This document shows positions 2,431-61,937 of a stretch of DNA of 64,000 nt, piece after piece (position 1 is the stretch's first letter; every line of letters starts with the position of its first letter). A program made the position numbers and the translations under genes. The stretch lies in the sequence record GU911519.1; one strand, 5' to 3'. Under the pieces are notes generated by a model. That model worked only from the letters and a program-made list of their open reading frames with translations, searched no databases and had not been told where the DNA came from. The DNA comes from Acinetobacter phage Acj61.

Positions 2431-2471
2431 TTGATAAGACCATTATATCAACGTGTCATGAAGAAGTAAAC
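2431..2471 (-). promoter_or_regulatory. early sigma70-type promoter cassette (PeSL-like) for rIIA.1/rIIA
   Basis: Sense strand: TTTACT (+2465-2470) - 17 nt - TATAAT (+2442-2447); core tgataagaccattata. Confidence 0.6.
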
Positions 2472-2494
2472 AGTTTTGTGAAAATATTTTGAAC

Positions 2495-2526
2495 TATTTT
2501 AAACGATCAAAGGACCCGAAGGTCCT
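2495..2526 (-). terminator. rho-independent terminator (UUCG tetraloop), bidirectional
   Basis: ggacc-cgaa-ggtcc with U/T runs on both strands. Confidence 0.5.
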
Positions 2527-2632
2527 TTTTGAATTTGTCTTTACGTTTGTACTGTGTCTTGTCTTGCACAACTTGCATCTTAAACGCAGGAGTTCGAACA
2601 GCTTTAGCGATTGGATTACGTTTACCTTTCAT
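2507..2632 (-). CDS. tiny basic ORF (41 aa, MKGKRNPIAKAVRTPAFKMQVVQDK...)
   Basis: ATG 6 nt after AAGGAA; sits between two terminator-like hairpins; its last codons lie inside the 2512-2525 hairpin, so it could equally be non-coding. Confidence 0.3.
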   Translation of the reverse strand: MKGKRNPIAKAVRTPAFKMQVVQDKTQYKRKDKFKKDLRVL

Positions 2633-2649
2633 AACATTTCCTTAAATAG

Positions 2650-2669
2650 GAGGCTGCTTTCGCAGCCTC
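2650..2669 (-). terminator. terminator-like GC hairpin after ATP-grasp gene
   Basis: gaggctgc-tttc-gcagcctc, 8-bp stem, 10 nt after stop codon. Confidence 0.45.
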
Positions 2670-2676
2670 ATTGAGT

Positions 2677-3915
2677 TTACTTCCAAAGATAAGAGTATTT
2701 ATCTTCAAGGTCATATGGAATCATCATATGACTTGCAAAGAATGCATTCATACCAGTGACTAGATTTTGATCTTCTCGGACACTCATACCACATGCCTTG
2801 TCGCCGATAATCCATGAACCAAGAATTGGGTAGTAGCCATCATGACTTGGAATGTCTACCCATTGCTGATACATGTAGCCCCAGTGATCATATTCTGGAA
2901 CCAAGTGAGAACCTTGAGCTAGTCGTTCAACATGATTTCCGTTCTCAAACGTTGATTGGAAAATGTTTGAACCTTCACGTCCATGGATGGCTTTCTTAGC
3001 CCATTTAGAATATGATGTCGGTTTATGGATATGAGATTCAAGAAGCAATGGATGATCTGGAAACATCTCCCAAAGCTTGACTAACATTGCCTTATTTGAC
3101 AATAACATTTTCCATGCAGGTTCCATCCAGCGTGTAGGAGCGTCGATGATATTTTTACCGAACTCTTCTTCAGTGATCCATTCCCATGGATACAATTTGA
3201 ACAAATCTCGAATTTCTTTATCTTCAAGATCAACAAATCGATTTTCAGGTGTAAGACCAATTTGTTCCATTTGGATTTCTTTAACAGTCATTCCTGAACG
3301 CAATGCGTTGTCCATGAGATAAACAAGATTGCCAAAGTCTTCATGACGGAATCCACCTGATGCAGCAAAGTGAATCAATGAACCTGGGCTGAATCGTTTC
3401 TGCCAAGTTTCAGTTAGTGTCTCATCAATAAGGTTATATTGAGTGCGAAGTTCTTGTGGCACAGGTTGTCCATTAGGAAGATTCTTGATTTGCTCTAAGT
3501 AATGCCATTGACCTACTGAACATTCAAGAATTGAAACTGGTGTGTCACCATTGTACTCTAACATTTTTAGAGAACCATCACGTTGTTGAACCAAATCGAA
3601 ACGACCGTATAATGAAGGCTCTTTAAGATGCCATGATTGTTCAATCAAAGGAATGTCACGTTCATTCAATTTGAAGTATTCAGGATAATCGCCTGATTTG
3701 ACCATTTGCGATACCATTTCGATACACATATTGTGAAGGTCTTGAGTTGCATCTTGAATTCGATCAACTTGCGTTTCAGAAAAAGCATACATAACACCTT
3801 CTTGCCAGTATGGTAAGTTGTCAGGGCCTGAAGGTGCGTTCCAATAATTCATGCCGATGCCTTCAAGCTGTTGGATGAAATCAGGACGTTTTTCAAAATT
3901 TGTATGACGTTTCAT
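2677..3915 (-). CDS. YgiC/YjfC-like glutathionylspermidine-synthase-family ATP-grasp ligase
   Basis: Motifs LFKLYPWE, WMEPAWKMLLSNKAMLVKLWEMFPDHPLL, REGSNI, ILGSWIIGDKACGMSVRED match E. coli YgiC/GspS synthetase domain; real ATG at 3915 (AAAGAG RBS); track start 3945 is the ATG inside TATAATG of the promoter. Confidence 0.75.
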   Translation of the reverse strand: MKRHTNFEKRPDFIQQLEGIGMNYWNAPSGPDNLPYWQEGVMYAFSETQVDRIQDATQDLHNMCIEMVSQMVKSGDYPEYFKLNERDIPLIEQSWHLKEPSLYGRFDLVQQRDGSLKMLEYNGDTPVSILECSVGQWHYLEQIKNLPNGQPVPQELRTQYNLIDETLTETWQKRFSPGSLIHFAASGGFRHEDFGNLVYLMDNALRSGMTVKEIQMEQIGLTPENRFVDLEDKEIRDLFKLYPWEWITEEEFGKNIIDAPTRWMEPAWKMLLSNKAMLVKLWEMFPDHPLLLESHIHKPTSYSKWAKKAIHGREGSNIFQSTFENGNHVERLAQGSHLVPEYDHWGYMYQQWVDIPSHDGYYPILGSWIIGDKACGMSVREDQNLVTGMNAFFASHMMIPYDLEDKYSYLWK

Positions 3916-3932
3916 ATTAACTCTTTGTTTTG

Positions 3933-3979
3933 TTGATAAGACCATTATACCACAAAGGCAGTTTGAAGTAAACTGCCTT
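3933..3979 (-). promoter_or_regulatory. early promoter cassette with -35 inside stem-loop
   Basis: ggcagttt-gaagt-aaactgcc hairpin (3957-3977) carries TTTACT; 17 nt; TATAAT at 3944-3949; hairpin doubles as terminator for upstream gene. Confidence 0.6.
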
Positions 3980-3989
3980 TTTCATTTAT

Positions 3990-4268: not shown

Positions 4269-4271
4269 TGA

Positions 4272-4556: not shown

Positions 4557-4567
4557 TTATTTGGGAA

Positions 4568-4594
4568 AGAGAAAAGGGACTCATATGAGTCCCA
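4568..4594 (-). terminator. rho-independent terminator
   Basis: gggactca-ta-tgagtccc followed in sense by UUUUCUCUUUCCC. Confidence 0.55.
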
Positions 4595-4600
4595 GATTAA

Positions 4601-5149: not shown

Positions 5150-5158
5150 GTATTTTCC

Positions 5159-5500: not shown

Positions 5501-5514
5501 ATTATATTTGATAG

Positions 5515-5557
5515 ATCTATTATAACAAAAAAGGAATATGATGTAAACATATTCCTT
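5515..5557 (-). promoter_or_regulatory. early promoter cassette with -35 in stem-loop (drives SMR gene)
   Basis: aaggaatat-gatgtaaac-atattcctt hairpin 5531-5557; TTTACA - 17 nt - TATAAT (5519-5524). Confidence 0.6.
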
Positions 5558-5569
5558 TATTATTTTTGA

Positions 5570-6313: not shown

Positions 6314-7324
6314 TTATACAATTTGATCAAGCCATCTTTCACGAATTGTATCTTTAACAATAGTTTGAAGTCCGGCTTTCAATTTTGAAGGTTGTTTGGC
6401 ATCATTGATTGATACTCCTTCACGTTCAGCTTCAACAAAGATATCTCGCATGGTTAGACCGAGGACTTTACCAAAATCTTTAGAAGTCACTTCGCCGATA
6501 TGAGAGATTACGTTTGAAACACGGTTCCACGTAACAAATTCACTGAACTTTTCAAGAAGAGCTAAGTCTTCAGCAGGAAGAGGTACCGGAACAGCAGGTG
6601 CTTTACCTTTACCTTTTTCTTTGAATTTGTCAGTTTTATATTTGATAGCAATTCGGCCACCAGTTCGTAAGAACATAGGAGTTACTGGCTTGATCACAAG
6701 TCCTTCAGACACGTTGTCTTTTGCTTCCGGCTGTTCGAATTTCATTTGGTTAACGATTGCACCTTGAGCTTCAAATAATTTGTCGTACTCGTTAACAACA
6801 GTGTCATATTCGACTGGCAATTTTAAGAGTTCATCAATAGTTCCGAGGCCAATGACAGGAGCCATTTTAAGGTGATGAGCAAAACATAACTTAGTTACAA
6901 AGTCATCAGCCATGTACAAAGCTTCAGTTCCATTTTTGGTAAAGATGACATCAAACACATAGAAGTCTTTTTCACCATAATCAACTTCTTTCTGGATTCC
7001 ACCACCTGCATATTCACCAAAGATTTGAATTTGAGTGATTTCTCCACCAATGTATGCACTTTGAATTTCTTTAAAGTGAGTTTTGTATTTAGCCATGAGA
7101 TCTTCATAACCGAAGAACTTTTCAGTTTCAGTGATTGGGCCAGAACGTTTTGCAGGACTGATTGAGTCGGCAGTAATGATTACGCTGAAGTTAGTGCCAT
7201 GAATCTTTTCACGAGCAACAAATAATTCATTACGAAGTCCATTAGCATCGAGATAATCGAAAACCGCTGCAAGGAATTTACCGTTAGTGTGATTTTCTAA
7301 GCTAGAGTATTTTTGAAAAGTCAT
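6314..7324 (-). CDS. rnlB: RNA ligase 2 (Rnl2-type ATP-dependent RNA ligase)
   Basis: MTFQKYSSLENH...VAREKIHGTNFS (KxHG nucleotidyl-lysine motif)...FGEYAGGGIQKEVDYGEKDFYVFDV aligns closely with T4 gp24.1 Rnl2; AGGAAATG RBS. Confidence 0.85.
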   Translation of the reverse strand: MTFQKYSSLENHTNGKFLAAVFDYLDANGLRNELFVAREKIHGTNFSVIITADSISPAKRSGPITETEKFFGYEDLMAKYKTHFKEIQSAYIGGEITQIQIFGEYAGGGIQKEVDYGEKDFYVFDVIFTKNGTEALYMADDFVTKLCFAHHLKMAPVIGLGTIDELLKLPVEYDTVVNEYDKLFEAQGAIVNQMKFEQPEAKDNVSEGLVIKPVTPMFLRTGGRIAIKYKTDKFKEKGKGKAPAVPVPLPAEDLALLEKFSEFVTWNRVSNVISHIGEVTSKDFGKVLGLTMRDIFVEAEREGVSINDAKQPSKLKAGLQTIVKDTIRERWLDQIV

Positions 7325-7379
7325 GTCTACATTTCCTATGTGGTTAAATTTGATATTGATACTTTAAATCAAAAATGTT

Positions 7380-9418: not shown

Positions 9419-9475
9419 GTTGTCTCCATTTGGATGGGTTGATAGTGTTATAATAAACCAAAAAGTTTGAAAGCA

Positions 9476-9498
9476 CAAAAGGAGCCGAAGCTCCTTTT
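9476..9498 (-). terminator. rho-independent terminator, UUCG tetraloop
   Basis: Sense GGAGC-UUCG-GCUCC-UUUUGUGCUUUC directly after lysozyme stop. Confidence 0.65.
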
Positions 9499-11264: not shown

Positions 11265-11294
11265 TGATTTCCTCAATTTGATTAATGATTTGAT
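11265..11294 (-). repeat. conserved leader+RBS repeat (copy 1 of 3)
   Basis: gatttcctcaatttgattaatgatttgata = sense ...TATCAAATCATTAATCAAATTGAGGAAATC-ATG; also 30489-30523 and 35463-35492. Confidence 0.85.
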
Positions 11295-11340
11295 AGAACT
11301 ATTATACACCAAAAATGACCAGATGTAAACCATCTGGTCA
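11290..11340 (-). promoter_or_regulatory. early promoter cassette with -35 in stem-loop
   Basis: accagatg-taaac-catctggt hairpin 11317-11339; TTTACA - 17 - TATAAT (11301-11306). Confidence 0.6.
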
Positions 11341-11352
11341 TTTATTTTTACT

Positions 11353-13199: not shown

Positions 13200-13215
13200 A
13201 ATTTCTCCGATCTAT

Positions 13216-13258
13216 CTGACAGGACCATTATAACATAGCCCTGTCGAGAAGTAAATAA
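13216..13258 (-). promoter_or_regulatory. early promoter cassette, palindrome-flanked -10
   Basis: gacaggacc|attata|...gccctgtc; TTTACT (13250-55) - 17 - TATAAT (13227-32). Confidence 0.55.
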
Positions 13259-16681: not shown

Positions 16682-16700
16682 AATAAGTTCCTCATTTTGT

Positions 16701-16745
16701 TGATAAGACTATAATAACACAACGAGAGGACAAAGTAAACTGTTT
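16701..16745 (-). promoter_or_regulatory. early promoter cassette (variant -10 TATTAT)
   Basis: tgataagactataataac; TTTACT (16735-40) - 17 - TATTAT (16712-17). Confidence 0.5.
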
Positions 16746-18862: not shown

Positions 18863-18892
18863 GTTTACTTTCTTCACAACTTAAATTATAAT
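18863..18892 (+). promoter_or_regulatory. plus-strand (antisense-oriented) copy of early promoter
   Basis: GTTTACT (18863-69) - 17 nt - TATAAT (18887-92) on + strand; inverted copy of the 21293-21348 / 21924-21980 cassette. Confidence 0.45.
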
Positions 18893-18915
18893 GTAATAGA
18901 CCAAGAAATCTGTGG
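18875..18915. repeat. inverted-orientation copy of the 21293/21924 promoter repeat
   Basis: cacaacttaaattataatgtaatagaccaagaaatctgtgg = reverse complement of ccacagatttcttggtctattacattataattta... Confidence 0.85.
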
Positions 18916-19266
18916 AAAGTTACATCTTAGGTAGAACAAATTCATTTTCGAGATTACACAGAGGTGTCTTCTGTTCTTTGAATTTAGCTCCATAATAGTT
19001 ACATATACGTTTCCACAAAGGAAGTGCAGGCTTACTCCAGGAGTATTTGTGACCATAGAGTTGAAACAAAAGCGGATAATTTTTGTTTCAACTCTATGGT
19101 CTTGTGGTCGAATGAAGTTTTTGATGAGTGTACTCTCAGGGCCTACAGGTGTATGCGTGAGAACAGGTATCATCGAACCTACAACATGTACTGCTTGTTT
19201 TGAACCATAAAGCTCTACTACAACCGGAGTGTGACAGATGAGCCAATGTATTTTAACTATGTTCAT
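18886..19266 (-). CDS. doubtful ORF; N-terminal ~55 codons plausible, remainder traverses a 20-bp perfect inverted repeat
   Basis: ATG 19266 with GGAG RBS after terminator 19285-19300; 3' half (19052-19100 palindrome, odd Cys/Trp-rich composition) may be non-coding. Confidence 0.3.
   Translation of the reverse strand: MNIVKIHWLICHTPVVVELYGSKQAVHVVGSMIPVLTHTPVGPESTLIKNFIRPQDHRVETKIIRFCFNSMVTNTPGVSLHFLCGNVYVTIMELNSKNRRHLCVISKMNLFYLRCNFPQISWSITL
19052..19100. repeat. perfect 20-bp inverted repeat with 9-nt loop
   Basis: accatagagttgaaacaaaa-gcggataat-ttttgtttcaactctatggt. Confidence 0.9.
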
Positions 19267-19269: not shown

Positions 19270-19301
19270 AAAACTCCAAGAAGAGGAGCCCGAAGGCTCC
19301 A
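19270..19301 (-). terminator. rho-independent terminator, UUCG loop
   Basis: ggagcc-cgaa-ggctcc after stop of 19308-19505 gene. Confidence 0.55.
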
Positions 19302-19528: not shown

Positions 19529-19550
19529 TCAAATCCATTATTAGATTTGA
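19529..19550 (-). repeat. conserved 5'-leader hairpin (copy 1 of 6)
   Basis: tcaaatc-cattattag-gatttga; copies at 19947-19968, 20348-20369, 20856-20877, 21830-21851; covarying copy tcaaaac-catgattag-gttttga at 21210-21231. Confidence 0.85.
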
Positions 19551-19588
19551 TAAGACCATTATATCAAATGATCTTATCAATGTAAACT
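19546..19588 (-). promoter_or_regulatory. early promoter cassette
   Basis: tgataagaccattata...tgtaaac; -10 at 19558-63. Confidence 0.55.
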
Positions 19589-19592
19589 GTTT

Positions 19593-19928
19593 TTAGAAAT
19601 TATTTTCAATTAATTTCACATTGTGTAGTGAGCGAAGATACTCATCGGCTTCATCGATCATATCAAAACCACCAGGTTCAATGAATTCACCAAAGATGAA
19701 AGATTCATTATCAACTTCATAATTGAACTCTACACACATGTAGATGACTTCGTCTAAATCTTCATCTTCGTACTCGTACAAAGCAAAACCATTGATGACC
19801 ATTTCACTATCAGAATCAAAACTTACACCTTTGATGTATTGTTGAACCAATGAAAGGCCCGAGATTACATAGTACTCCGCTTGAAGTGCAGATTGAGTTT
19901 CGATTGAAGTAGGAAATTTGATGTTCAT
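19593..19928 (-). CDS. hypothetical acidic protein
   Basis: 111 aa; cassette promoter + conserved hairpin leader upstream. Confidence 0.5.
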   Translation of the reverse strand: MNIKFPTSIETQSALQAEYYVISGLSLVQQYIKGVSFDSDSEMVINGFALYEYEDEDLDEVIYMCVEFNYEVDNESFIFGEFIEPGGFDMIDEADEYLRSLHNVKLIENNF

Positions 19929-19961
19929 AATACTTTACTCTAAGTTTCAAATCCATTATTA

Positions 19962-20013
19962 GATTTGATAAGACCATTATATCAAAAAGGAAAGCAGTTG
20001 TAAACCACTTTCC
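19962..20013 (-). promoter_or_regulatory. early promoter cassette with -35 in stem-loop
   Basis: ggaaag...gtaaac...ctttcc hairpin 19989-20013; -10 19977-82. Confidence 0.55.
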
Positions 20014-20021
20014 TAAATGTT

Positions 20022-20330
20022 TTAAACTTTTTTCAACAATGTTTCAAGTGAAGACCCGTTCTTAATTGAATAGAAAATGTCTTTGATCTCTTCGTTGTCA
20101 AAGTTTTCAAGGCAGTCAAATCCTAGATCTAACAAAGTTTTATTCGTGTACTTTAACTCTGAATTTACTTCAAAGATGTAAGTGTACTTTTCAGTAGTGC
20201 AATGGAGGAAAACGACTTCATGTGAAGCCAGGATTAACACTGATGTGCCATGATTAAATGCATCAAGAACTACGACGTTGTGCAAATCATGTTGTTCTTT
20301 GATTGATTGTGCAAAGAAGTTGATGTTCAT
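20022..20330 (-). CDS. hypothetical protein
   Basis: 102 aa from MNINFFAQ...; track start is the artefactual ATG inside TATAATGGTCTTATC. Confidence 0.5.
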   Translation of the reverse strand: MNINFFAQSIKEQHDLHNVVVLDAFNHGTSVLILASHEVVFLHCTTEKYTYIFEVNSELKYTNKTLLDLGFDCLENFDNEEIKDIFYSIKNGSSLETLLKKV

Positions 20331-20361
20331 AATATTTCCTTCATATTTCAAATCCATTATT

Positions 20362-20413
20362 AGATTTGATAAGACCATTATATCAAAAGATCATGCTGTT
20401 GTAAACAGCATGA
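20362..20413 (-). promoter_or_regulatory. early promoter cassette with -35 in stem-loop
   Basis: catgctg-ttgtaaa-cagcatg hairpin 20392-20412; TTTACA - 17 - TATAAT (20377-82). Confidence 0.6.
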
Positions 20414-20424
20414 CCCAAATTATT

Positions 20425-20835
20425 TTACAATTTTTCGAAGTTTACACTAAAGAAAATTTGTTGATATGCTGCATCATAGAGATAAGTTGAACGAAAACTT
20501 TCTTTAAAGATATGAGCTCGATATCCTTTATCGGGTTCACCTGCTTTCTTTTTAGGCTTAATGAAATCTACCATAGCATGATTATTTGAACGAGTTACAA
20601 GGATTCCACCAAGAGATTGCAGCTTATTGATGATTTCATCGAATTTTGCAGCAATTTTCTTAGGCTTAACGTCTGTGCAATCCATGGGACTTAAAGTTAC
20701 ATAAGTTGGGATTAAACGATACATTGTACCAGTTGCATCACGGTAAGGGCGATACGTTCCATCTAAAGCTTCAACTTTAACAGTTGCTAATGGGAAAGCT
20801 TCTTTGAAAGATTTTTTGATTTCTGACATATTCAT
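20425..20835 (-). CDS. hypothetical protein
   Basis: 136-aa ORF. Confidence 0.5.
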   Translation of the reverse strand: MNMSEIKKSFKEAFPLATVKVEALDGTYRPYRDATGTMYRLIPTYVTLSPMDCTDVKPKKIAAKFDEIINKLQSLGGILVTRSNNHAMVDFIKPKKKAGEPDKGYRAHIFKESFRSTYLYDAAYQQIFFSVNFEKL

Positions 20836-20870
20836 AACAATTTACTCATTTTATATCAAATCCATTATTA

Positions 20871-20915
20871 GATTTGATAAGACCATTATACCATCATTTG
20901 CTTTAGAAGTAAACA
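20871..20915 (-). promoter_or_regulatory. early promoter cassette
   Basis: TTTACT (20908-13) - 17 - TATAAT (20885-90). Confidence 0.55.
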
Positions 20916-20943
20916 CTTTTAGCAAATTATTTTCGGTTTATTT

Positions 20944-20976
20944 TCGCACAAAAAGAGGAGCCTTGAGCTCCTCTTT
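20944..20976 (-). terminator. rho-independent terminator
   Basis: gaggagc-cttga-gctcctc then UUUUUGUG in sense. Confidence 0.6.
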
Positions 20977-20985
20977 CTTAGAAGA

Positions 20986-21192
20986 TTATTCTTCTTCCAT
21001 GTGTGCCATTAACGTCTGGATTAACGTGTCATAATCGCCTTCCATACATTTGTTGGTAACCTTTTGGCATTCTTCCATCGTCCAACCTTGACGTACTGCA
21101 AGTCTTTTGAAGTGACCCATTAGAGCAAAAGCGTTTCCATTGAGACCAACTAAAGAACCTTTAACAAATTTTGGTGGATTGAATAAGTTCAT
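20986..21192 (-). CDS. hypothetical small protein
   Basis: 68 aa from MNLFNPPKF...; terminator 20955-20973 downstream. Confidence 0.45.
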   Translation of the reverse strand: MNLFNPPKFVKGSLVGLNGNAFALMGHFKRLAVRQGWTMEECQKVTNKCMEGDYDTLIQTLMAHMEEE

Positions 21193-21224
21193 AATATTTC
21201 CTTCATTTTTCAAAACCATGATTA

Positions 21225-21269
21225 GTTTTGATAAGACCATTATATCAACTCATAAAGCAAAAGTAAACA
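21225..21269 (-). promoter_or_regulatory. early promoter cassette
   Basis: TTTACT (21262-67) - 17 - TATAAT (21239-44). Confidence 0.55.
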
Positions 21270-21292
21270 GTTTTGATAAAATATTTTTGTGC

Positions 21293-21348
21293 TACAGATT
21301 TCTTAGTCTATTACATTATAATTTAGAACTCAAGAAAAGTAAATAGTA
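21293..21348 (-). promoter_or_regulatory. second early promoter family (no palindrome), copy B
   Basis: Sense ATTTACT (21338-43) - 17 - TATAAT (21315-20); ~57-bp near-identical repeat of 21924-21980. Confidence 0.5.
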
Positions 21349-21354
21349 GAAGCC

Positions 21355-21384
21355 ACAAAAAGGTGATCATTTGATCACCTTTTA
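21355..21384 (-). terminator. rho-independent terminator
   Basis: aggtgatca-tt-tgatcacct flanked by A and T runs. Confidence 0.6.
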
Positions 21385-21392
21385 TTCAATGA

Positions 21393-21812
21393 TTACCAGA
21401 TGCTGCAGTTGTCATCTTCATCTTCATCAAACTCTTCCTCTTCGTAGTTTGTGTAGATTTCAAGCTCGTTAAACTTGAACGTTCCGTTGTCATAACTGAA
21501 AGCAATTGAAGTATCGTTAAACATAAATGAGTTTTGCTTAACAAAGTCTTCTTTAAGTTTTTCAGGACAACATAAAGCTAATGGAACTACACCGATAATT
21601 CCTGCGTCTACTGAGAAAGATACACCTAAGTTTGAATCATAACATCCATCTCCCCAAGCAGTGTTTGAGAGAGCCATCTGATGACCTTCAATTTCAACAA
21701 TTTGAGCACGTGTGTTGAAATCCATTTTATCGCAAAGCACATCATAAGCATCATCACGCATTACGTAACATGGATCGATTGTGATGTAAGTAGCTTGTGG
21801 TAATGTAATCAT
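21393..21812 (-). CDS. hypothetical acidic protein
   Basis: 139 aa with poly-acidic C-terminus. Confidence 0.5.
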   Translation of the reverse strand: MITLPQATYITIDPCYVMRDDAYDVLCDKMDFNTRAQIVEIEGHQMALSNTAWGDGCYDSNLGVSFSVDAGIIGVVPLALCCPEKLKEDFVKQNSFMFNDTSIAFSYDNGTFKFNELEIYTNYEEEEFDEDEDDNCSIW

Positions 21813-21844
21813 TTCAATTTCCTCTAAGTTTCAAATCCATTATT

Positions 21845-21889
21845 AGATTTGATAAGACCATTATACTACGTTTTGCTATTGAAGTAAAC
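21845..21889 (-). promoter_or_regulatory. early promoter cassette
   Basis: TTTACT (21882-87) - 17 - TATAAT (21859-64). Confidence 0.55.
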
Positions 21890-21923
21890 TGTTTTTGCGA
21901 AAATAGTTTAAAATATTTTAGAG

Positions 21924-21980
21924 CCACAGATTTCTTGGTCTATTACATTATAATTTAGAACTCAAGAAAAGTAAATAGTA
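21924..21980 (-). promoter_or_regulatory. second early promoter family, copy C
   Basis: ATTTACT (21970-75) - 17 - TATAAT (21947-52). Confidence 0.5.
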
Positions 21981-22382: not shown

Positions 22383-22426
22383 ATTTGATAAGACTATTAT
22401 ACACTAACTACTTCATGATGTAAACT
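22383..22426 (-). promoter_or_regulatory. early promoter cassette
   Basis: TTTACA (22419-24) - 17 - TATAAT (22396-401). Confidence 0.55.
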
Positions 22427-23458: not shown

Positions 23459-23501
23459 TTTGATAGGACCATTATACAACAGTCTTATTGAGAAGTAAAC
23501 A
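23459..23501 (-). promoter_or_regulatory. early promoter cassette
   Basis: TTTACT (23494-99) - 17 - TATAAT (23471-76). Confidence 0.55.
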
Positions 23502-24070: not shown

Positions 24071-24098
24071 GATAGGATTCCTTTAGGATTGATTTGAT

Positions 24099-24140
24099 AG
24101 GACCATTATATCATAGTCCTATCTAGTTGTAAACTGCTTT
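24099..24140 (-). promoter_or_regulatory. early promoter cassette, palindrome-flanked
   Basis: gataggac|cattatatca|tagtcctatc; TTTACA (24133-38) - 17 - TATAAT (24110-15). Confidence 0.55.
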
Positions 24141-25089: not shown

Positions 25090-25137
25090 GTGTTTCTCCA
25101 ATATGTTTGGGTTAATTTGATAGGATCATTATAACAC

Positions 25138-25575
25138 TTAAATTTCAAAAGCGTTAAATGATCGGTGAATTGAACGAATAAAACGTTCTGACGATTCAAT
25201 TGCTTGATGCCGAGTATGGATGCCATCGTAATAGCCTGATTTAGCTCGTTCGAGCTGTGCTTCAGCACGTTTTAGACTATTGTTCAGAGTACGCAATCGA
25301 CGACACTTGTTGCCATACTGATCTCGAACAGTCTCGAGAGTTTGTTTAACACATTGCAAGCGTTCGATTTGAGCTAACGTGGTTTTATGAATCTTGCCAG
25401 CTCGTCGAGCAGCAGGCCATGCTTCAGCTGCTAATGCATTGTTTTTGACCTTTGCGGAATATAACAAAGTTGCATTTAAGACTTCAATTTGAGCCTTGAC
25501 TGTAGCGATATCTCGGTTGAAGTCTTTGATAAATTGCTTAACCAAGATGATCTTTTCGTGCGGTAACTGTTTCAT
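25138..25575 (-). CDS. hypothetical coiled-coil protein
   Basis: 145-aa ORF. Confidence 0.45.
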   Translation of the reverse strand: MKQLPHEKIILVKQFIKDFNRDIATVKAQIEVLNATLLYSAKVKNNALAAEAWPAARRAGKIHKTTLAQIERLQCVKQTLETVRDQYGNKCRRLRTLNNSLKRAEAQLERAKSGYYDGIHTRHQAIESSERFIRSIHRSFNAFEI

Positions 25576-26790: not shown

Positions 26791-26810
26791 AACGATTTAC
26801 TCAATTTGAT

Positions 26811-26852
26811 TTGATAGGACCATTATAACACGGATTTCGTGATTTGTAAACC
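26811..26852 (-). promoter_or_regulatory. early promoter cassette
   Basis: TTTACA (26845-50) - 17 - TATAAT (26822-27). Confidence 0.55.
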
Positions 26853-28380: not shown

Positions 28381-28430
28381 GGGACTTGTTATAGTCCCAT
28401 TATATCATAATTTGTTCAAGTTTACAAGTT
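28381..28430 (-). promoter_or_regulatory. promoter for primase gene with 5'-leader hairpin
   Basis: TTGTAA (28423-28) - 17 - TATAAT (28399-404); gggact-tgttat-agtccc hairpin lies in leader before GAGGAAAG RBS. Confidence 0.5.
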
Positions 28431-29156: not shown

Positions 29157-29180
29157 TTGGTACTCCAATAAGTATTTATT

Positions 29181-29221
29181 TGATGGAGCCATTATATCAT
29201 AGCTCCATGCGAAAGTAAACT
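29181..29221 (-). promoter_or_regulatory. early promoter cassette, covarying palindrome
   Basis: atggagc|cattatatca|tagctccat; TTTACT (29214-19) - 17 - TATAAT (29191-96). Confidence 0.55.
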
Positions 29222-30516: not shown

Positions 30517-30559
30517 TTTGATATGTCTATTATACCATACGTGGCTTTGGTTGTAAACT
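30517..30559 (-). promoter_or_regulatory. early promoter cassette + conserved leader
   Basis: TTTACA (30552-57) - 17 - TATAAT (30529-34); leader 30489-30523. Confidence 0.55.
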
Positions 30560-30805
30560 ACTTTTTGAATCTTTTTCAACAGGTTGTACACATTGTATGA
30601 TTTGTCCTGTTGGATACTGAGCGATTTGATGCAGAGTAGCTGCTTCTTCATCGTCAATGGTTTGGACAACATCGAGCACTAAGATGCCATTGATGCATTC
30701 AAACGAGATATTTGTTACAATCTTAGGTTCGTAAACATAAGAGCTTTGAGCTTCTGTGCAACCAGAAGAGACCAATAACGCAAGAGCAATAGCAAAGTAT
30801 TTCAT
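30530..30805 (-). CDS. small lipoprotein
   Basis: Signal + lipobox LVSSGC. Confidence 0.55.
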   Translation of the reverse strand: MKYFAIALALLVSSGCTEAQSSYVYEPKIVTNISFECINGILVLDVVQTIDDEEAATLHQIAQYPTGQIIQCVQPVEKDSKSSLQPKPRMV

Positions 30806-31140: not shown

Positions 31141-31162
31141 GATAAAAATTTCGTTAGTTGAT

Positions 31163-31210
31163 TTGATAAGACCATTATACCACAAAAGGCAGTTTGATGT
31201 AAACTGCCTT
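31163..31210 (-). promoter_or_regulatory. early promoter cassette with -35 in stem-loop
   Basis: ggcagttt-gatgt-aaactgcc hairpin 31189-31209; -10 31174-79. Confidence 0.55.
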
Positions 31211-34476: not shown

Positions 34477-35459
34477 TTCATTTCACCATTTGGATTATAT
34501 GGAAGTATTATACCATCTTTCATGGCATTTGTAAACTTTGTAATGTAATCATCGTTGTAAAGATTTGTAACTACATCAAAGTTTTCCCAAGCGAATTCAC
34601 GGAACCAGCCTGAAGTAATCGACGTACAGACTTTCTCGAGAGCAATCATGAAACTTTCGTATGGACGAACCATAAACTCATTAGGAATCTGTGAACGTTC
34701 TAATGCAAGGACGTATGATTCTTCGAGGACTCCGAGTAATTGGACTGCCTTGCTTTGAGCAAAGAAACGATCTTTGTCGCAATGAACTTCTTGATTTTCA
34801 GTCATGTAGTATTCGTATGCTGGCTTGTCAAGAAGCTTTACTGCTCGATGAATCGAGTCATGGTCATAAATGTAATTGAAATTTGAATGGAAGAAATCTG
34901 ATTTGCCTACGTTGAGCTTTGGAGTCGCGTAATCGTATGTCTCCTTCATTCGTGCCTGATAGAACTGCTCGTCGATGATCTTTGCACCGATTTTACGCAT
35001 GTTCTTGATGTGTTTCATGGTCTTATGAAAATGAGGACTATTACGAAGATAACGATGACTCATCTTAAGCGTATAAAGCAAATCTAATGACGCATACATG
35101 TAGTTAGCGTAATTGATTGACTCTGGTAGTTTAGGAGCGAGTTGAACTTCATGTTCGAAGCCATGATATAACTGATAAGTCGTAGACTTCTTTGAAGTTG
35201 GAAAGGTGAGTTCCCACATTGATCCGTAATGATTCAAGACGATTGTACCAGTCTTGAATTTCTTAGATGTGGTAATCTTTTCGATTGCAAGAGATGAGTT
35301 GAATTGACGTAAGTAATCAATAAACTCGTATGCAGACTTTTGATTTGGCACGATGATATCGTGATCAAGAGGTTCGAGATTGTGATCGATATGCAGTTTG
35401 TCAAGATGACGAACTAATGCATGAGAACCAATAACGAGAGGTTGAAATGATAATTTCAT
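34473..35459 (-). CDS. hypothetical protein (328 aa; possible degenerate GS...DxD nucleotidyltransferase-like N-terminus)
   Basis: Long ORF; PLVIGSHAL...DHDIIV loosely reminiscent of pol-beta NTase fold; preceded by conserved leader/RBS repeat. Confidence 0.5.
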   Translation of the reverse strand: MKLSFQPLVIGSHALVRHLDKLHIDHNLEPLDHDIIVPNQKSAYEFIDYLRQFNSSLAIEKITTSKKFKTGTIVLNHYGSMWELTFPTSKKSTTYQLYHGFEHEVQLAPKLPESINYANYMYASLDLLYTLKMSHRYLRNSPHFHKTMKHIKNMRKIGAKIIDEQFYQARMKETYDYATPKLNVGKSDFFHSNFNYIYDHDSIHRAVKLLDKPAYEYYMTENQEVHCDKDRFFAQSKAVQLLGVLEESYVLALERSQIPNEFMVRPYESFMIALEKVCTSITSGWFREFAWENFDVVTNLYNDDYITKFTNAMKDGIILPYNPNGEMK

Positions 35460-35486
35460 GATGATTTCCTCAATTTGATTAATGAT

Positions 35487-35527
35487 TTGATAGGACCATT
35501 ATACCATGAATCCTATCAAAAGTAAAC
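35487..35527 (-). promoter_or_regulatory. early promoter cassette + conserved leader
   Basis: TTTACT (35521-26) - 17 - TATAAT (35498-503). Confidence 0.55.
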
Positions 35528-36212: not shown

Positions 36213-36232
36213 TTCAATTTCCTCTTTGTTTG

Positions 36233-36274
36233 ATGATAGGACCATTATAACATGGTCATAATTTAAAGTAAACC
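36233..36274 (-). promoter_or_regulatory. early promoter cassette
   Basis: TTTACT (36267-72) - 17 - TATAAT (36244-49). Confidence 0.55.
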
Positions 36275-37128: not shown

Positions 37129-37170
37129 TTTGATAGGACCATTATACAACAGTCCTATCATAAAGTAAAC
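37129..37170 (-). promoter_or_regulatory. early promoter cassette, perfect palindrome
   Basis: tgataggac|cattatacaac|agtcctatca; TTTACT (37164-69) - 17 - TATAAT (37141-46). Confidence 0.6.
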
Positions 37171-38628: not shown

Positions 38629-38649
38629 ATTTCCACCTTTGTCCAATTA

Positions 38650-38690
38650 GAAATCATTATATACCACAAATGGTCCCGAAGGACCATTGC
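38650..38690 (-). promoter_or_regulatory. extended -10 promoter for gene 41 fused to UUCG terminator hairpin
   Basis: Sense ...ggtccttcgggacc-atttgTGgTATATAATg; no clear -35. Confidence 0.4.
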
Positions 38691-40145: not shown

Positions 40146-40176
40146 GTTAGGTCCTGACGTGATTGTAATGATATTT

Positions 40177-40196
40177 ATAGAGCCCGAAGGCTCTAT
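40177..40196 (-). terminator. terminator-like UUCG hairpin after glycosyltransferase B
   Basis: atagagcc-cgaa-ggctctat; weak U tract. Confidence 0.45.
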
Positions 40197-45867: not shown

Positions 45868-45940
45868 ATTTGAATAATTCCTAAGAAGAACTGTGATACG
45901 TTAATTATACCACAGTTCTGAGTTAAAGTACATTGCTATT

Positions 45941-46854: not shown

Positions 46855-46876
46855 GATGATTTCCTCATCTAAATTA

Positions 46877-46920
46877 TTTGATAGGACCATTATAACACAG
46901 TCCTATCAAATCGTATACTG
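46877..46920 (-). promoter_or_regulatory. early promoter cassette, perfect palindrome
   Basis: tgataggac|cattataacac|agtcctatca; -10 46889-94; -35-like GTATAC. Confidence 0.5.
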
Positions 46921-49483: not shown

Positions 49484-49501
49484 GATAATTCCATCATTGT
49501 T

Positions 49502-49542
49502 TTGATAGGACCATTATAACATAGTCCTATCAAAAAGTAAAC
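49502..49542 (-). promoter_or_regulatory. early promoter cassette, perfect palindrome
   Basis: TTTACT (49536-41) - 17 - TATAAT (49513-18). Confidence 0.55.
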
Positions 49543-51658: not shown

Positions 51659-51675
51659 AATTTAATACTCATTAG

Positions 51676-51717
51676 ATGATAAGACTATAATAACAAATCA
51701 TATAGCAAAAGTAAACT
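51676..51717 (-). promoter_or_regulatory. early promoter cassette (variant -10 TATTAT)
   Basis: tgataagactataataac; TTTACT (51710-15) - 17 - TATTAT. Confidence 0.5.
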
Positions 51718-51726
51718 ATTAGATGC

Positions 51727-51750
51727 CACAAAAGGAGCATAAAGCTCCTA
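51727..51750 (-). terminator. rho-independent terminator
   Basis: aggagc-ataaa-gctcct then UUUGUGGC. Confidence 0.55.
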
Positions 51751-52036: not shown

Positions 52037-52089
52037 ATCATAACTCCGGTTTGTAAGATCATTATACTACATGTTAAGAAGAAGCACAA

Positions 52090-54826: not shown

Positions 54827-54844
54827 GATAATGTCCTCATTTAG

Positions 54845-54886
54845 TTGATAAGGCTATTATATCAAATAGCCTTGGATTTGTAAACA
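54845..54886 (-). promoter_or_regulatory. early promoter cassette between genes 44 and 62, covarying palindrome
   Basis: aaggcta|ttatatcaaa|tagcctt; TTTACA (54879-84) - 17 - TATAAT (54856-61). Confidence 0.55.
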
Positions 54887-55853: not shown

Positions 55854-55884
55854 AATAAGCTCCGTGTCATTTCAGAAAAATAAG

Positions 55885-55910
55885 AAGTAAGGAAGGCCCG
55901 AAGGCCTTAA
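55885..55910 (-). terminator. rho-independent terminator, UUCG loop, after gene 45
   Basis: aaggcc-cgaa-ggcctt then CCUUACUUCUUAUUUUU. Confidence 0.6.
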
Positions 55911-55911
55911 C

Positions 55912-56598: not shown

Positions 56599-56646
56599 AA
56601 TTACCTCGAAATGTTAATAAAAATGTTGTTAGTGATATTATATCAC

Positions 56647-57021: not shown

Positions 57022-57097
57022 AATAAATTCCTTGATTAAGTGGATGTATCAATTAAGATTTGATGAGAGTATTTTAAACTACAATTTAATATAGCAC

Positions 57098-57286
57098 TCA
57101 ATCATAATACTCTGATAAGAGCCAGGCGTCATTTCGCCCTGATTTAATTTTGAGGAATCCCTCTTCACCAAAGGCAGCTAAAAGCTGCTCTTTAGTAACG
57201 AGAGTTTCTTCATTCGTATAGAGATTAGTAAGTGTATACTTCTTAATCTCTGGGTGCAATGACAAATCGTTTAGAGTTTCCATCAT
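57098..57286 (-). CDS. hypothetical small protein
   Basis: 62-aa ORF abutting the gene 46 start. Confidence 0.4.
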   Translation of the reverse strand: MMETLNDLSLHPEIKKYTLTNLYTNEETLVTKEQLLAAFGEEGFLKIKSGRNDAWLLSEYYD

Positions 57287-58965: not shown

Positions 58966-59068
58966 AGTTGTGAACCTGCCATAAGACCGCCAAAAAATGC
59001 AGCTGTTGCGATAGCACACCAAATCAATTCATTTGCGAACCATTCACGTTTTGTCATCTTGACATAAA

Positions 59069-60085: not shown

Positions 60086-60325
60086 GTTTTACCTCCAACG
60101 TAATGATTCCATTATACCACAAAAGGATGCTAAAGCATCCCCGTGAAGTTATCGAACAAATCAGGCTTCGCTTCGCGCTGGTCCGGGTCCGGACCAGAAA
60201 TCCACTTCGTAAATAACTAACGAAGTTATTTATAACTTTTCTCTGAGCACTTTCTCGAAAAGTGAACAATTTAGTTTAGAAAGTAAACATCCAATTGTAT
60301 TGTATTTGTAACAACATATAGATAC

Positions 60326-60351
60326 GCGAAAGGGACTCAATTGAGTCCCTA
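60326..60351 (-). terminator. rho-independent terminator
   Basis: agggactcaa-ttgagtccct then UUCGCG. Confidence 0.5.
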
Positions 60352-60355
60352 TACG

Positions 60356-60724
60356 TTATTTAGCGGTTTGTACAATATCGAGCAATGATTGACGGCTGGT
60401 ATTCCACATTGTGCGAATGAGTTCGTCGTTATAAGGCTGTTTATAAATGTCACGCAATTTCTTAATAGCGTATGCATAACCATCAAATCGGTTTTCCATT
60501 AAACATTTACCAGCATGATTTTTGAGACGTTTGATTTCACGTCCATTTCGTTTTAAAACCCGTTGTGCTTTTTGAGTAGCCATAGACATCATTTTATCGT
60601 GCATCTTTTCTGCATCGTAGTGGTCTAAGAGAGATGATTGACCTTCATCTTCGGCTTGTTCTTCAGTGAGGTTTGCTTGGATTGCTTCAGCTTCAACTAA
60701 TTGATGTTCGATATTGGCTTGCAT
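60356..60724 (-). CDS. hypothetical acidic protein
   Basis: 122 aa; terminator 60331-60350 downstream. Confidence 0.45.
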   Translation of the reverse strand: MQANIEHQLVEAEAIQANLTEEQAEDEGQSSLLDHYDAEKMHDKMMSMATQKAQRVLKRNGREIKRLKNHAGKCLMENRFDGYAYAIKKLRDIYKQPYNDELIRTMWNTSRQSLLDIVQTAK

Positions 60725-60726
60725 AA

Positions 60727-60903
60727 TTATCCCTTTGTTTCGTAGGTGAGCTGCAATCCGAATGATGATTCAGATACGTTAAATTGATAATCTAAATCGA
60801 AATTCGGATCGATTTCAGCTCTGAATAGATTGTTACCACCAGGTAACGTTGCGTATTGGCTGTCTTCATTTAATAGATGAGTTATGTCAAGATTCATCTC
60901 CAT
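60727..60903 (-). CDS. possible small ORF downstream of gene 55
   Basis: ATG overlapping gp55 C-terminus; weak RBS. Confidence 0.3.
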
Positions 60904-61432
60904 ATAGGAAATCCAGGTTAGGTCCATCAGCTTTCGCTTGCTCTTTCGGCTGAGCTTTAACTGACTCTTCATATTGCGTCATTTTGTCGTAGATGTCTTG
61001 AATGAAATTCTCATCGGCTATTGAGGCCATATCAGTATCTCGTGAATCATAAACATTGTTGACAAAGTAGCTATATTTCTTAGCCATCTCTTTACGTTCT
61101 TTCTTGATACGCTGAACAAAGGCATTGAAACAAGCTTGGGTGATATACGCATGTGGATTATTGAATCGGGTCTCATCGAAGTTGATAAGACCTTTAATCG
61201 ACGCTTCAATCCCATCCGATATCATTTCCTCTTTCCAAGACGACGAATATCCTGAAAAGTTGAATCGTTTCGAAAGTCCTTTTGCAATTAAAAGGATTGC
61301 TTTACCGATCGTGTCATTTTGGCGAACAGGTTCACCTGCCTCAGCACATTTCTGTTTCCAATCGCAAATCGCTTGATACAGCTCTTTGTTATTGACATAA
61401 TTGTTCTTCGGCTTAATTGGTTGGTCAGTCAT
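60887..61432 (-). CDS. 55: late-transcription sigma factor
   Basis: ...[16 protein letters not shown]...[47 protein letters not shown]...[41 protein letters not shown] aligns near-identically with T4 gp55. Confidence 0.93.
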
Positions 61433-61492
61433 AGTTAATTACCTCTTGATAAGATAATTATACAACACTTAATCATAAAGCATATGAAATAT

Positions 61493-61900
61493 TTATGTCT
61501 TTGGTAACTTGTCTATCGGTTTGATTTCATCGGCTTTCCAAACTTTACCTTCAACATATGATTTGAACACAAGTTCTTCAGATTCTGACACACGTTTCAA
61601 ATCTCCAGAGATATCTACAGAGACATACACAATTTCACCGTTGCGAACACAGATTTCGCCTAGACGTTGACATTGGTCATTGTAGATCGTCGCAATTAGA
61701 TTTGAATTCGTGCGAGTTTCATATGACAAGATATGAACGTACCCAATAACAGTAGGCTCAACAATGGTTTCTTCAATGAATAACCACTTTTTCTTAGTGA
61801 CTAACTGATTCCATTGTAAGGCGTGAAAGCCTTGATTAAGAGATTGTAGTCGTTTGATTGCACTTAACATATCATACTCCAGTTTGTTTTGATAGTTCAT
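61493..61900 (-). CDS. hypothetical protein
   Basis: 135-aa ORF. Confidence 0.45.
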   Translation of the reverse strand: MNYQNKLEYDMLSAIKRLQSLNQGFHALQWNQLVTKKKWLFIEETIVEPTVIGYVHILSYETRTNSNLIATIYNDQCQRLGEICVRNGEIVYVSVDISGDLKRVSESEELVFKSYVEGKVWKADEIKPIDKLPKT

Positions 61901-61937
61901 TATACCACAAAAGACAGTTTGAAGTAAACTGCCTTTT
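61890..61937 (-). promoter_or_regulatory. early promoter cassette with -35 in stem-loop
   Basis: gacagttt-gaagt-aaactgcc hairpin; -10 61899-904; 18-nt spacer. Confidence 0.5.

Follow-up and report, generated by a model that had tools for sequence, protein, structure and literature searches.

Early-promoter stem-loop (PeSL-type) cassettes in a 64-kb stretch of Acinetobacter phage Acj61, with covarying stems around the -10

Promoter-early stem-loops (PeSLs) were defined in the T4-like phages RB49 and phi1 as units of a stop codon, an AT-rich tract, -35 and -10 boxes, a stem-loop, a Shine-Dalgarno (SD) sequence and an ATG. They were sorted into five subclasses by the place of the stem-loop, which may precede the -35, overlap the -35, fall between the two boxes, overlap the -10 or follow the -10; those between the boxes or overlapping the -10 were the commonest, and G-T pairs were allowed (Arbiol et al. 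2010, PMC2839356). One PeSL stem-loop acted as a strong terminator in a lacZ assay, the PeSL promoters proved very strong, and mini-circles arose from crossovers between neighbouring PeSLs; these crossovers mapped either to the loop or to the segment from the -10 to the ATG (PMC2839356). PeSLs were later extended to PST/T4 and nt-1/KVP40, and middle-promoter versions were added (Comeau et al. 2014, PMC4122927). Here we describe a repeated cassette of this kind in a 64,000-nucleotide stretch of Acinetobacter phage Acj61 (record GU911519.1; the whole stretch is called the window below), in which a promoter of the T4 early type is combined, in many copies, with a stem-loop.

The cassettes are rightly regarded as a well-supported example of an already-known element type in a divergent T4-like lineage, so that PeSL-type cassettes are now extended to a lineage related to Acinetobacter phages. 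An earlier inspection of the letters alone, the sequence-only reading, had proposed this identity, and the sequence-level features of PeSLs are indeed all present: a repeated promoter of the sigma-70 type, an AT-rich tract, a stem-loop in a published position, an upstream stop codon, and an SD followed by ATG. RB49 itself, checked directly, has stems that enclose the -10 in the same register (ATGCGGTTAT/ATGACCGCAT, ATGGGAGTA/TACTCCCAT, GGGAGTAT/ATACTCCC and GGGGATAT/ATGTCCCC), and together with the published -10 subclass they identify the covarying palindromes of the window as PeSL stem-loops of subclasses known from the literature.

The likeness to the PeSLs of RB49 is one in parts and comprises the stem-loop positions, including those over the -35 or the -10, and the density in small-gene blocks (ten cassettes within 4.6 kb, at 19.5-24.1 kb of the window; eight in about 5 kb of RB49). 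Published PeSLs differ in their -35, TTGACA as against the T4-type GTTTAC with an 18-nt spacer, and in their polyG/polyC stems, whereas the stems of the window are not of polyG type and its host lineage is Acinetobacter-like. A further difference is the start region GGTCYTATCAA of the window, which is unusually long and conserved and doubles as the 3' arm of the stems around the -10 (class P below). Promoter, terminator and mini-circle activities of published PeSLs were assayed, whereas the cassettes of the window are known from sequence alone. T4 early promoters share with the window the -35 GTTTAC, the TGn motif, TATAAT, upstream A-tracts and C as the preferred base at -3 to -1 (Hinton 2010, PMC2988021; Nolan et al. 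2006, PMC1524935). Beyond the -10 their conserved block is shorter than that of the window, whose block also occurs in Acinetobacter phage Acj9.

Promoter unit, gene context and stem-loop classes

Long open reading frames (ORFs) occupy the minus strand only. The motif GTTTAC-N16-18-TATAAT, for which chance predicts 0.04 occurrences, is matched exactly at 23 sites, of which 22 are on the minus strand, and a position weight matrix built from the copies returned 28 sites, all on the minus strand, at 15.7-73.7 bits (best score in shuffled sequence, -1.4). Scanning for a -10 with downstream TATC(A/T) added five sites with a poor or absent -35 (61462, 57076, 45909, 25133 and 9455). Profile and motif scans together bring the number of cassettes to 33, each lying on the minus strand ahead of a minus-strand gene, and a scan of the other gaps showed at least three variants besides these (at about 60116, 38661 and 28404), in agreement with the more than 30 copies counted earlier. 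An independent repeat finder recovered a main family of 20 copies of 58 nt and two subfamilies, one with six copies of 84 nt at 19.5-21.9 kb and one with four copies of 76 nt, and the cassettes rank as the top matches of an independent consensus promoter scan.

Conservation continues past the hexamers as TATAAT-GGTCYTATCAA(atc). TG precedes the -10 in most copies, giving a TGn extended -10, and the 25 nt upstream of the -35 contain 74% AT, compared with 62% window-wide, with the consensus AAAATnATTTTCAAAAAACA; the complete set of T4-type early promoter features is therefore found, from the -35 GTTTAC and the extended -10 to TATAAT and UP-like A-tracts. Every cassette sits in a short gap, the median gap length being 62 nt with a cassette and 2 nt without. 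In most cassettes 24-51 nt separate the upstream ORF's stop codon from the -10, and in three this stop codon falls within TATAAT; leaders of 18-72 nt (mostly 21-46 nt) carry an SD-like motif in nearly all cases before the ATG. Blocks of small genes are rich in cassettes, the intervals 37.2-45.9 kb and 57.1-61.4 kb have none, and none occurs in the conserved replication blocks. For annotation this means that the cassettes mark transcription-unit boundaries and that at least five ORFs carry false N-terminal extensions ('MVLS...') derived from the ATG of TATAATG (at 3945, 20378, 21240, 37142 and 46890), as had been suspected from the letters.

A stem-loop over the promoter occurs in only about 18-20 of the 33, which corrects the sequence-only reading. 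The stem-loop overlaps the -35 and is followed by a T-run in seven or eight cassettes, encloses the -10 in ten or eleven, lies downstream of the -10 in one and upstream in three or four. The downstream case (28381) had been counted among the palindromes that bracket a -10, which it does not do: its hairpin follows its TATAAT and precedes TTTT.

Stems over the -35 (class T) are found at 3949, 5524, 11306, 19981, 20382, 31179 and 61904, with variants at 60116, 38661 and 9455. They have 8-13 bp; the -35 is either flanked by the arms or contained in them, and the spacer as far as TGn is filled by the T-run that follows. In silico they fit the intrinsic-terminator consensus in our own hairpin scan as well as in a consensus terminator scan, and only in this class is a hairpin with G+C followed by the U-tract of an intrinsic (Rho-independent) terminator. 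The terminator-like hairpins noticed earlier at 3957, 31189, 61912, 5531 and 20392 are real.

Stems enclosing the -10

Class P consists of the cassettes at 13232, 19563, 24110, 29196, 35503, 37146, 45909, 46894, 49518 and 54861 and, weakly, 36249; those which had been recognised as -10-bracketing palindromes from the letters (24101, 37131, 46879, 49503, 29183, 54850 and 13218) were all recovered. The spacer provides one arm and the discriminator/+1 block the other, which leaves the -10 hexamer as the loop. The stems have 9-15 bp, are often lengthened by CUAU/AUGG to give a hexaloop, and are followed by A-rich sequence, not by a T-run. RNAfold returns the hairpin as the dominant element at all ten window sites, with z values of -2.2 to -4.8 at nine of them and -0.97 at one.

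These stems exceed chance. All ten sites reach p<0.05 against shuffled spacers, five of them p<=0.005. In a pooled set of 138 unique promoters (the window, Acj9 and 44 T4-like loci fetched via gp41) at least nine Watson-Crick pairs surround the -10 in 26, compared with one in the shuffled-spacer control, one with reversed spacers and eight with swapped 3' halves. Their register is fixed as well: the dyad centre falls between -12 and -11 in 21 of 49 stems with at least seven Watson-Crick pairs, and no other centre accounts for more than six. Outside the window, in-register runs of at least seven pairs occur in 21 of 100 promoters (swaps 3.9; slid registers 0-2), and a replicate of 56 further promoters from metagenome contigs gave five stems with at least nine pairs, against 0-1 in the controls.

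The arms differ between copies and keep pairing, as GATAGGAC/GTCCTATC, ATGGAGC/GCTCCAT, AAGGCTAT/ATAGCCTT, GACAGGGC/GTCCTGTC and AGAACTGTG/CACAGTTCT demonstrate within the window. In a fixed-register alignment of 33 window sequences 51.7% of cells are paired (48.5 +/- 1.0 when shuffled, 0/500; slid controls 30-43%), and the covariation score is 0.179 as compared with 0.142 (1/500). The stronger test is provided by orthologues. Directly downstream of gene 41 the promoter carries a stem in the window, in Acj9, in other Acinetobacter phages, in many enterobacterial T4-like phages and in T4, and 35 distinct promoter sequences from this place, T4 included, were aligned. Paired cells amount to 61.7% (55.4 +/- 1.2 shuffled, 0/500; slid registers 23-43%), cells with two-sided changes to 53 (29.4 +/- 6.3, 0/500), and the covariation score to 0.312 (0.236 +/- 0.015, 0/500); two-sided changes are seen in 11 of the 12 pairs, compared with 8.8 +/- 1.2 after shuffling, where 33 of 500 alignments reach 11. 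The junction of genes 44 and 62 likewise has a class P stem in the window (AAGGCTAT) and in Acj9 (AGTCCTA), with differing arms. T4 itself has stems enclosing the -10 at two promoters, one upstream of dmd (GACAAGACTA/TAGTCTTGTC) and one upstream of motB (GGGACCA/TGGTCCC).

These results support the conclusion that the -10-enclosing stems are selected as structure across the T4 superfamily, and the earlier suggestion that the arms covary to keep a structure holds within the window and among the gene-41 orthologues alike. Such statistical evidence, from paralogues as well as from orthologous junctions in T4, RB49 and Acj9, is new beyond the original PeSL descriptions. The function of class P can be approached in T4 itself, where the stems at the dmd and motB promoters (locus L078 of our set, 20560-20612 and about 7160-7215) are handy places for experiments.

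Classes T and P never coincide (0/30 vs 35/95). We considered and rejected the idea that they are functional alternatives: both classes need the spacer, so that the exclusivity is mostly a matter of physical overlap, and terminators upstream of the -35 are not significantly depleted (2/13, p=0.21).

Favoured reading and rival explanations

Whether class P pairs as RNA or as DNA can be judged from its imperfections. Among the stems with at least eight Watson-Crick pairs, the single interior non-Watson-Crick positions comprise ten G·U, one A·C and four others, where the null gives 12 : 16 : 55. Since G·U in the sense strand corresponds to mismatched A·C in its complement, pairing of the sense-strand RNA is favoured over a cruciform. 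An in-register wobble test on runs of at least seven pairs detected no asymmetry between sense and antisense (21 vs 20 outside the window, 6 vs 7 inside), and the argument thus depends on the interior mismatches of long stems only. Pairing is probably at the RNA level; the evidence, which adds to the PeSL descriptions a leaning to RNA, is suggestive and not decisive.

We consider it probable that the cassettes are early promoters for host sigma-70 RNA polymerase with an overwritten stem-loop, i.e. PeSLs, and that class P acts on read-through RNA. Motif, statistics, stems, covariation and the family match are its observed foundation, from which we infer the transcription start position, the RNA level and the function of class P. 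From 5' to 3' a cassette consists of an A/T-rich UP-like tract, the -35 GTTTAC, an 18-nt spacer usually ending in TGn, TATAAT, GGTCYTATCAA, a leader, SD and ATG, with the stop codon of the preceding gene placed upstream of the -10 or inside it. Given the very short gaps, a second signal would have been written over the promoter at positions that polymerase does not read sequence-specifically. Class T would serve as an intrinsic terminator or attenuator for transcripts coming from the upstream gene. For class P the predicted transcription start is the A 7 nt after the -10 hexamer; the 5' arm lies upstream of this start, so that the hairpin should form only in read-through RNA from upstream promoters and not in cassette-started RNA. 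Our best guess is that it acts on read-through transcripts as an intercistronic attenuator or a stability or processing hairpin. A third subfamily carries a 5'-terminal leader hairpin, and near-identical cassettes could double as short recombination homologies, as proposed for RB49/phi1, PST/T4 and nt-1/KVP40.

Several points weigh against this reading. About 40% of the cassettes have no stem over the promoter at all, and start sites, termination and read-through are deduced for this phage. Class P stems have no U-tract, and the consensus terminator scan of the window sites called none of them (0), so that the terminator/attenuator role of PeSL stem-loops is not obviously applicable to them. 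The mutual exclusivity of classes T and P is, as stated above, largely physical. Four of the ten G·U positions are the same consensus pair CTAT/ATGG, which lowers the independent count to about 6:1, and in the replicate of 56 metagenome promoters G·U exceeds A·C by only 2:1. Finally, the synteny test given below is confounded and uses a distant relative.

A bolder version, which we regard as speculative and rather unlikely, makes the -10-enclosing stems a distinct non-terminator RNA element across the T4 superfamily, with covarying stems and a constant loop (G/U)UAUAAU. It would be confined to read-through (delayed-early) transcripts, where a nuclease or RNA-binding protein could recognise it and so set the fate of read-through versus promoter-proximal mRNA; otherwise it could be a DNA hairpin coupling promoter opening or recombination to supercoiling.

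That class P acts as DNA altogether, as a cruciform or single-strand hairpin with the -10 as loop, and makes the promoter supercoil-sensitive or provides a recombination or nuclease hotspot that drives shuffling, is in our judgement unlikely. Several palindromes are perfect over 8-12 bp, or over 11-15 bp with a 6-nt loop if the flanking CTAT/ATGG is included, and the dyad centre keeps to the point between -12 and -11 at which promoter melting begins; its constancy is also accounted for if neither hexamer may be taken up by the arms. Many loops of 8-16 nt are unfavourable for extrusion, and sense G·U mismatches, which become A·C on the complementary strand, would weaken a cruciform. Since the interior mismatches are mostly of this kind, the cruciform-prone site considered in the sequence-only reading is disfavoured.

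Discrimination at the level of translation is known from the T4 genes e, soc, 49 and I-TevI, which resemble class P in having a promoter inside a hairpin that can fold only in transcripts started upstream; they differ in that SD/AUG are sequestered and the promoters are late or middle ones (Uzan & Miller 2010, PMC3014915). If class P worked in the same manner, read-through RNA would hide the ribosome-binding site and RNA started inside the hairpin would be translated. The shared promoter-in-hairpin logic, the missing 5' arm of the proximal transcript and the position of the window hairpins, which come to within 4-10 nt of the SD, speak for this, as do relatives whose 3' arm does contain the SD (L071, TTCTCCAGTAGTTG/CAACTACTGGAGAA; L048; L096; Acj9 at 30584) and an anti-SD in the spacer that covaries with the SD. 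SD masking by class P was nevertheless rejected for the window: the 3' arm extends from about -5 to +8, stops 4-30 nt short of the SD and never includes SD or ATG, and the unpaired probability from SD to AUG differs between read-through and primary transcript by 0.05 in class P and 0.085 in stemless cassettes, with no class-P-specific loss. The logic of e, soc and 49 is therefore present in the wider family and not in the window, for which translational discrimination is distinctly improbable; this negative result for SD masking is a further addition to what is known of PeSLs.

Anti-SD sequences in the spacer deserve mention in their own right. In many T-even-type relatives they covary with the downstream SD (TCTCC/GGAGA, TCCTC/GAGGA and TTCCTCT/AGAGGAA), the loci concerned being, at the promoter downstream of gene 41, L061-L066, L075, L048, L071 and L084-L087, which suggests SD masking in read-through RNA there. 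The window cassette at 16716 (16699-16740) combines a spacer TCCTC with an SD GAGGA.

T4-type replication yields templated mutations at quasipalindromes. The palindromes could hence be a functionless mutational by-product, of template-switch correction or of concerted evolution among cassettes, which can exchange sequence and have exact shared runs of up to 44 nt. We hold this to be very improbable, because in-register structure with different arms is kept at orthologous junctions of phages whose gp41 is only 60-70% identical (T4, Acj9, RB49), because the stems are strongly enriched relative to shuffled and slid controls, and because DNA-templated correction would not be expected to produce a G·U bias. 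The least probable explanation of all is the operator for a dimeric regulator that shuts off early promoters, also put forward from the letters: the dyad symmetry over the -10/+1 and the half-site GTCCTATCAAA in five or six copies are suggestive of it, but symmetry is kept with at least five unrelated arm sequences within one genome (among them GCTCCAT, AGCCTT, CACAGTTCT and GTCCTGTC), most cassettes have the downstream half only, and arms differ freely between phages.

Stable stem-loops are known as mRNA stabilisers, both between cistrons (REP-type elements and the UUCG tetraloop hairpins of T4) and at the 5' terminus (ompA-type). Their likeness to the elements of the window is that of a U-tract-less stem-loop located between cistrons or at an mRNA 5' end; the difference is that the window hairpin is superimposed on a predicted promoter. 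For the 5'-terminal type, six neighbouring cassettes (class L, 19563-21865) have a 9-bp hairpin that begins at +2 of the predicted transcript and ends at +23, AUCAAAUC-uaauaaug-GAUUUGA, with a compensatory change from AAAUC/GAUUU to AAAAC/GUUUU in the copy at 21244. The same leader is found in Acj9 (L032) around 17692, 19264, 21730 and 22958, and it may act as a 5' stem-loop stabiliser of mRNA.

Recombination, genomic setting and further elements

Recombinational shuffling of small genes by PeSLs, which the sequence-only reading had assumed to operate here, is plausible and weakly supported. Exact shared runs between cassettes reach the said 44 nt, 12 pairs share at least 30 nt, and the segment from the -10 to the SD, to which the RB49 crossovers were mapped, contains most of these runs. 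Synteny with Acj9 is broken at 24 of 33 cassette junctions and 36 of 79 others (odds ratio 3.2, p=0.012), a result compatible with exchange by way of PeSLs. The comparison is confounded, since promoters cluster in small-gene-rich regions, and a like result would be expected if novel small genes simply tended to carry their own promoters.

The genes that the window shares with Acj9, together with its low nucleotide and gp41 identities, identify it as the early-gene arm of a divergent T4-like myovirus nearest to the Acinetobacter T4-like phages. It begins within rIIA, where synteny with Acj9 starts, and remains collinear over the first ~68 kb of the Acj9 genome, the last window genes matching at ~68.2 kb. 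Common to both are glutathionylspermidine synthase, RnlB, topoisomerase, dexA, dda, primase, NAMPT, the gene 41 helicase, a split DNA polymerase, clamp loader, clamp, genes 46/47 and gene 55. In a megablast search of phage genomes no deposited phage exceeded a nucleotide identity of about 75-78%, which applied to parts of the window, and gp41 reached no more than 70% identity with any match in IMG/VR or metagenome contigs; by megablast, the gp41 scans of both collections and a class-P-specific DNA pattern, no relative closer than ~70% in amino acids or ~75% in nucleotides was detected. The window contains no tRNAs, and Rfam covariance models had 0 matches at gathering score across its 64 kb. 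Two tandem paralogues of 372 aa each (39027-40145 and 40203-41321) share DNA repeats spaced 1173-1176 nt and both match the single Acj9 gene Acj9p080 (81% and 53% identity).

Table 1. Cassettes and related elements of the window (all on the minus strand; arms are given as 5' arm / 3' arm; z, RNAfold z value).
Position	Class	Details
2430..2471 (-)	plain cassette	-35 2466-2471, -10 2442-2447, conserved GGTCTTATCAAC; no stem over promoter; UUCG hairpin + T-run upstream, 2512-2525
3932..3977 (-)	class T	GGCAGTTT 3970-3977 / AAACTGCC 3957-3964 around part of -35, then TTTGTGG; -10 3944-3949
5507..5558 (-)	class T	AAAGGAATATG 5548-5558 / CATATTCCTTT 5530-5540; -35 is the loop; then T-run; -10 5519-5524
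9438..9495 (-)	middle-promoter-like	TGCTT 15 nt before TATTAT 9450-9455, no GTTTAC; UUCG terminator hairpin 9480-9495; upstream of topoisomerase gene
11289..11342 (-)	class T	AATGACCAGATG 11331-11342 / CATCTGGTCATT 11314-11325, then T-run; -10 11301-11306
13215..13256 (-)	class P	directly downstream of dda; GACAGGGC 13238-13245 / GTCCTGTC 13218-13225, one G·U; -35 ATTTAC; -10 13227-13232; z -3.3
16699..16740 (-)	cassette, no strong stem	-10 TATTAT; spacer TCCTC complementary to downstream SD GAGGA
19546..19587 (-)	class P + 5'-leader hairpin	TTGATAAGATCAT 19568-19580 / ATGGTCTTATCAA 19547-19559, one G·U
19964..20014 (-)	class T + 5'-leader hairpin	arms 20003-20014 / 19988-19999, then TTTTGA
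20365..20416 (-)	class T + 5'-leader hairpin	13-bp arms 20404-20416 / 20388-20400, then TTTGAT
20873..20914 (-)	no stem over promoter	5'-leader hairpin AUCAAAUC..GAUUUGA; repeat family D5
21227..21268 (-)	no stem over promoter	leader hairpin with compensatory change AAAAC/GUUUU
21848..21889 (-)	no stem over promoter	5'-leader hairpin present
22384..22425 (-)	no stem	stop codon of upstream ORF within TATAAT
23459..23500 (-)	weak stem only	ATAAGAC/GTCCTAT, 7 bp, one A·C
24093..24134 (-)	class P	GATAGGACTAT 24113-24123 / ATGGTCCTATC 24096-24106; 6-nt loop; z -2.7
25116..25157 (-)	middle-promoter-like	-10 + TATCAA, no GTTTAC; GCTTTT 15 nt upstream; upstream of dCTPase gene
26810..26851 (-)	no strong stem	upstream stop codon within TATAAT
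28381..28427 (-)	variant, stem downstream of -10	TTGTAA-N17-TATAAT (-10 28399-28404), then hairpin GGGACT-ataaca-AGTCCC 28381-28398, then ATTTTGG
29179..29220 (-)	class P, covarying arms	ATGGAGCTAT 29199-29208 / ATGGCTCCAT 29183-29192; z -2.5
30517..30558 (-)	no stem	29-nt leader TATCAAATCATTAATCAAATTGAGGAAAT common to 11306 and 35503; repeat family D6
31162..31209 (-)	class T, 19-nt spacer	AGGCAGTTT 31201-31209 / AAACTGCCT 31187-31195
34495..34536 (-)	weak stem, divergent downstream region	ATGAAAG/CTTCCAT, one A·C
35486..35527 (-)	class P	TTTGATAGGA 35511-35520 / TCCTATCAAA 35486-35495; z -3.0
36232..36273 (-)	weak class P	TATGACCAT 36252-36260 / ATGGTCCTA 36237-36245, one mismatch
37129..37170 (-)	class P	directly downstream of gene 41 helicase; TGATAGGAC 37152-37160 / GTCCTATCA 37131-37139; orthologous to T4 promoter upstream of dmd; z -3.2
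38644..38687 (-)	variant	UUCG hairpin TGGTCC-TTCG-GGACCA, then TTTGTGG-TATATAAT; no GTTTAC
45887..45933 (-)	class P, unrelated arms	AGAACTGTGGTA 45908-45919 / TATCACAGTTCT 45887-45898; -35 ATGTAC; p=0.0005; z -3.1
46876..46918 (-)	class P	ATTTGATAGGAC 46900-46911 / GTCCTATCAAAT 46876-46887; z -4.8
49500..49542 (-)	class P	TTTTGATAGGACTAT 49521-49535 / ATGGTCCTATCAAAA 49500-49514; 15 pairs, one G·U, 6-nt loop; z -3.6
51675..51749 (-)	cassette	-10 TATTAT; separate upstream hairpin AGGAGC..GCTCCT + T-run 51733-51749
54844..54885 (-)	class P, covarying arms	gene 44 / gene 62 junction; AAGGCTAT 54866-54873 / ATAGCCTT 54850-54857; Acj9 same junction AGTCCTA/TAGGACT
57059..57100 (-)	weak cassette	-10 TAAAAT, poor -35; conserved CATCAAATC downstream
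60099..60146 (-)	variant	hairpin GGGGATGC-ttt-AGCATCC, then TTTTGTGG-TATAAT; no GTTTAC
61445..61486 (-)	middle-promoter-like	TGCTTTA-N13-TATAAT; upstream of gene 55 homologue
61887..61934 (-)	class T, 19-nt spacer	AGGCAGTTT 61926-61934 / AAACTGTCT 61912-61920

Several copies without GTTTAC carry TGCTT 15 nt upstream of the -10 and have the look of middle (MotA-type) promoters. Sites with a -10, mostly with the TATCA block, and TGCTT or GCTT about 15 nt upstream are located at 9438-9495, 61445-61486, 25116-25157, ~52040-52089 and ~7325-7379. They precede homologues of topoisomerase, gene 55, dCTPase and RnlB, and their layout is that of the MotA-dependent middle promoters of T4, an analogue of 'PmSL'.

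A second promoter-like repeat, (A/G)TTTAC-N18-TATAAT-GTAATAGAC(C/T)AAGAAATCTGT(G/A)G, is present at 21892-21976 (-), 21260-21344 (-) and 18863-18915 (+). On the minus strand both copies form part of a 114-nt repeat with 89% identity; each is situated ~76 nt upstream of a standard cassette and is preceded by a hairpin AAGGTGATC..GATCACCTT with a T-run. The plus-strand copy is the only strong promoter-like site on that strand of the window and points antisense into the ORF at 18886-19266.

Hairpins with a UUCG tetraloop, e.g. GGGAC-TTCG-GTCCC and GGAGCC-TTCG-GGCTCC, occur in the gaps at ~63345-63375, 55870-55900, 40165-40195, 38670-38687, 19280-19300, 9480-9495 and 2512-2525; a T-run follows most of them, and they resemble the C(UUCG)G hairpins common between T4 cistrons. 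The 270-nt non-coding gap from the gene 47 homologue to the next gene (60086-60355) contains the strong palindromes GGGACTCAATTGAGTCCC and CTGGTCCGGACCCGGACCAG and a TATAAATA motif resembling a T4 late promoter, and could harbour a small RNA or an origin-like element. A perfect palindrome that includes TATAAT, GTGATAT-A-ATATCAC, is located at ~56633-56645, in the gap that precedes the homologue of the sliding clamp (gene 45).

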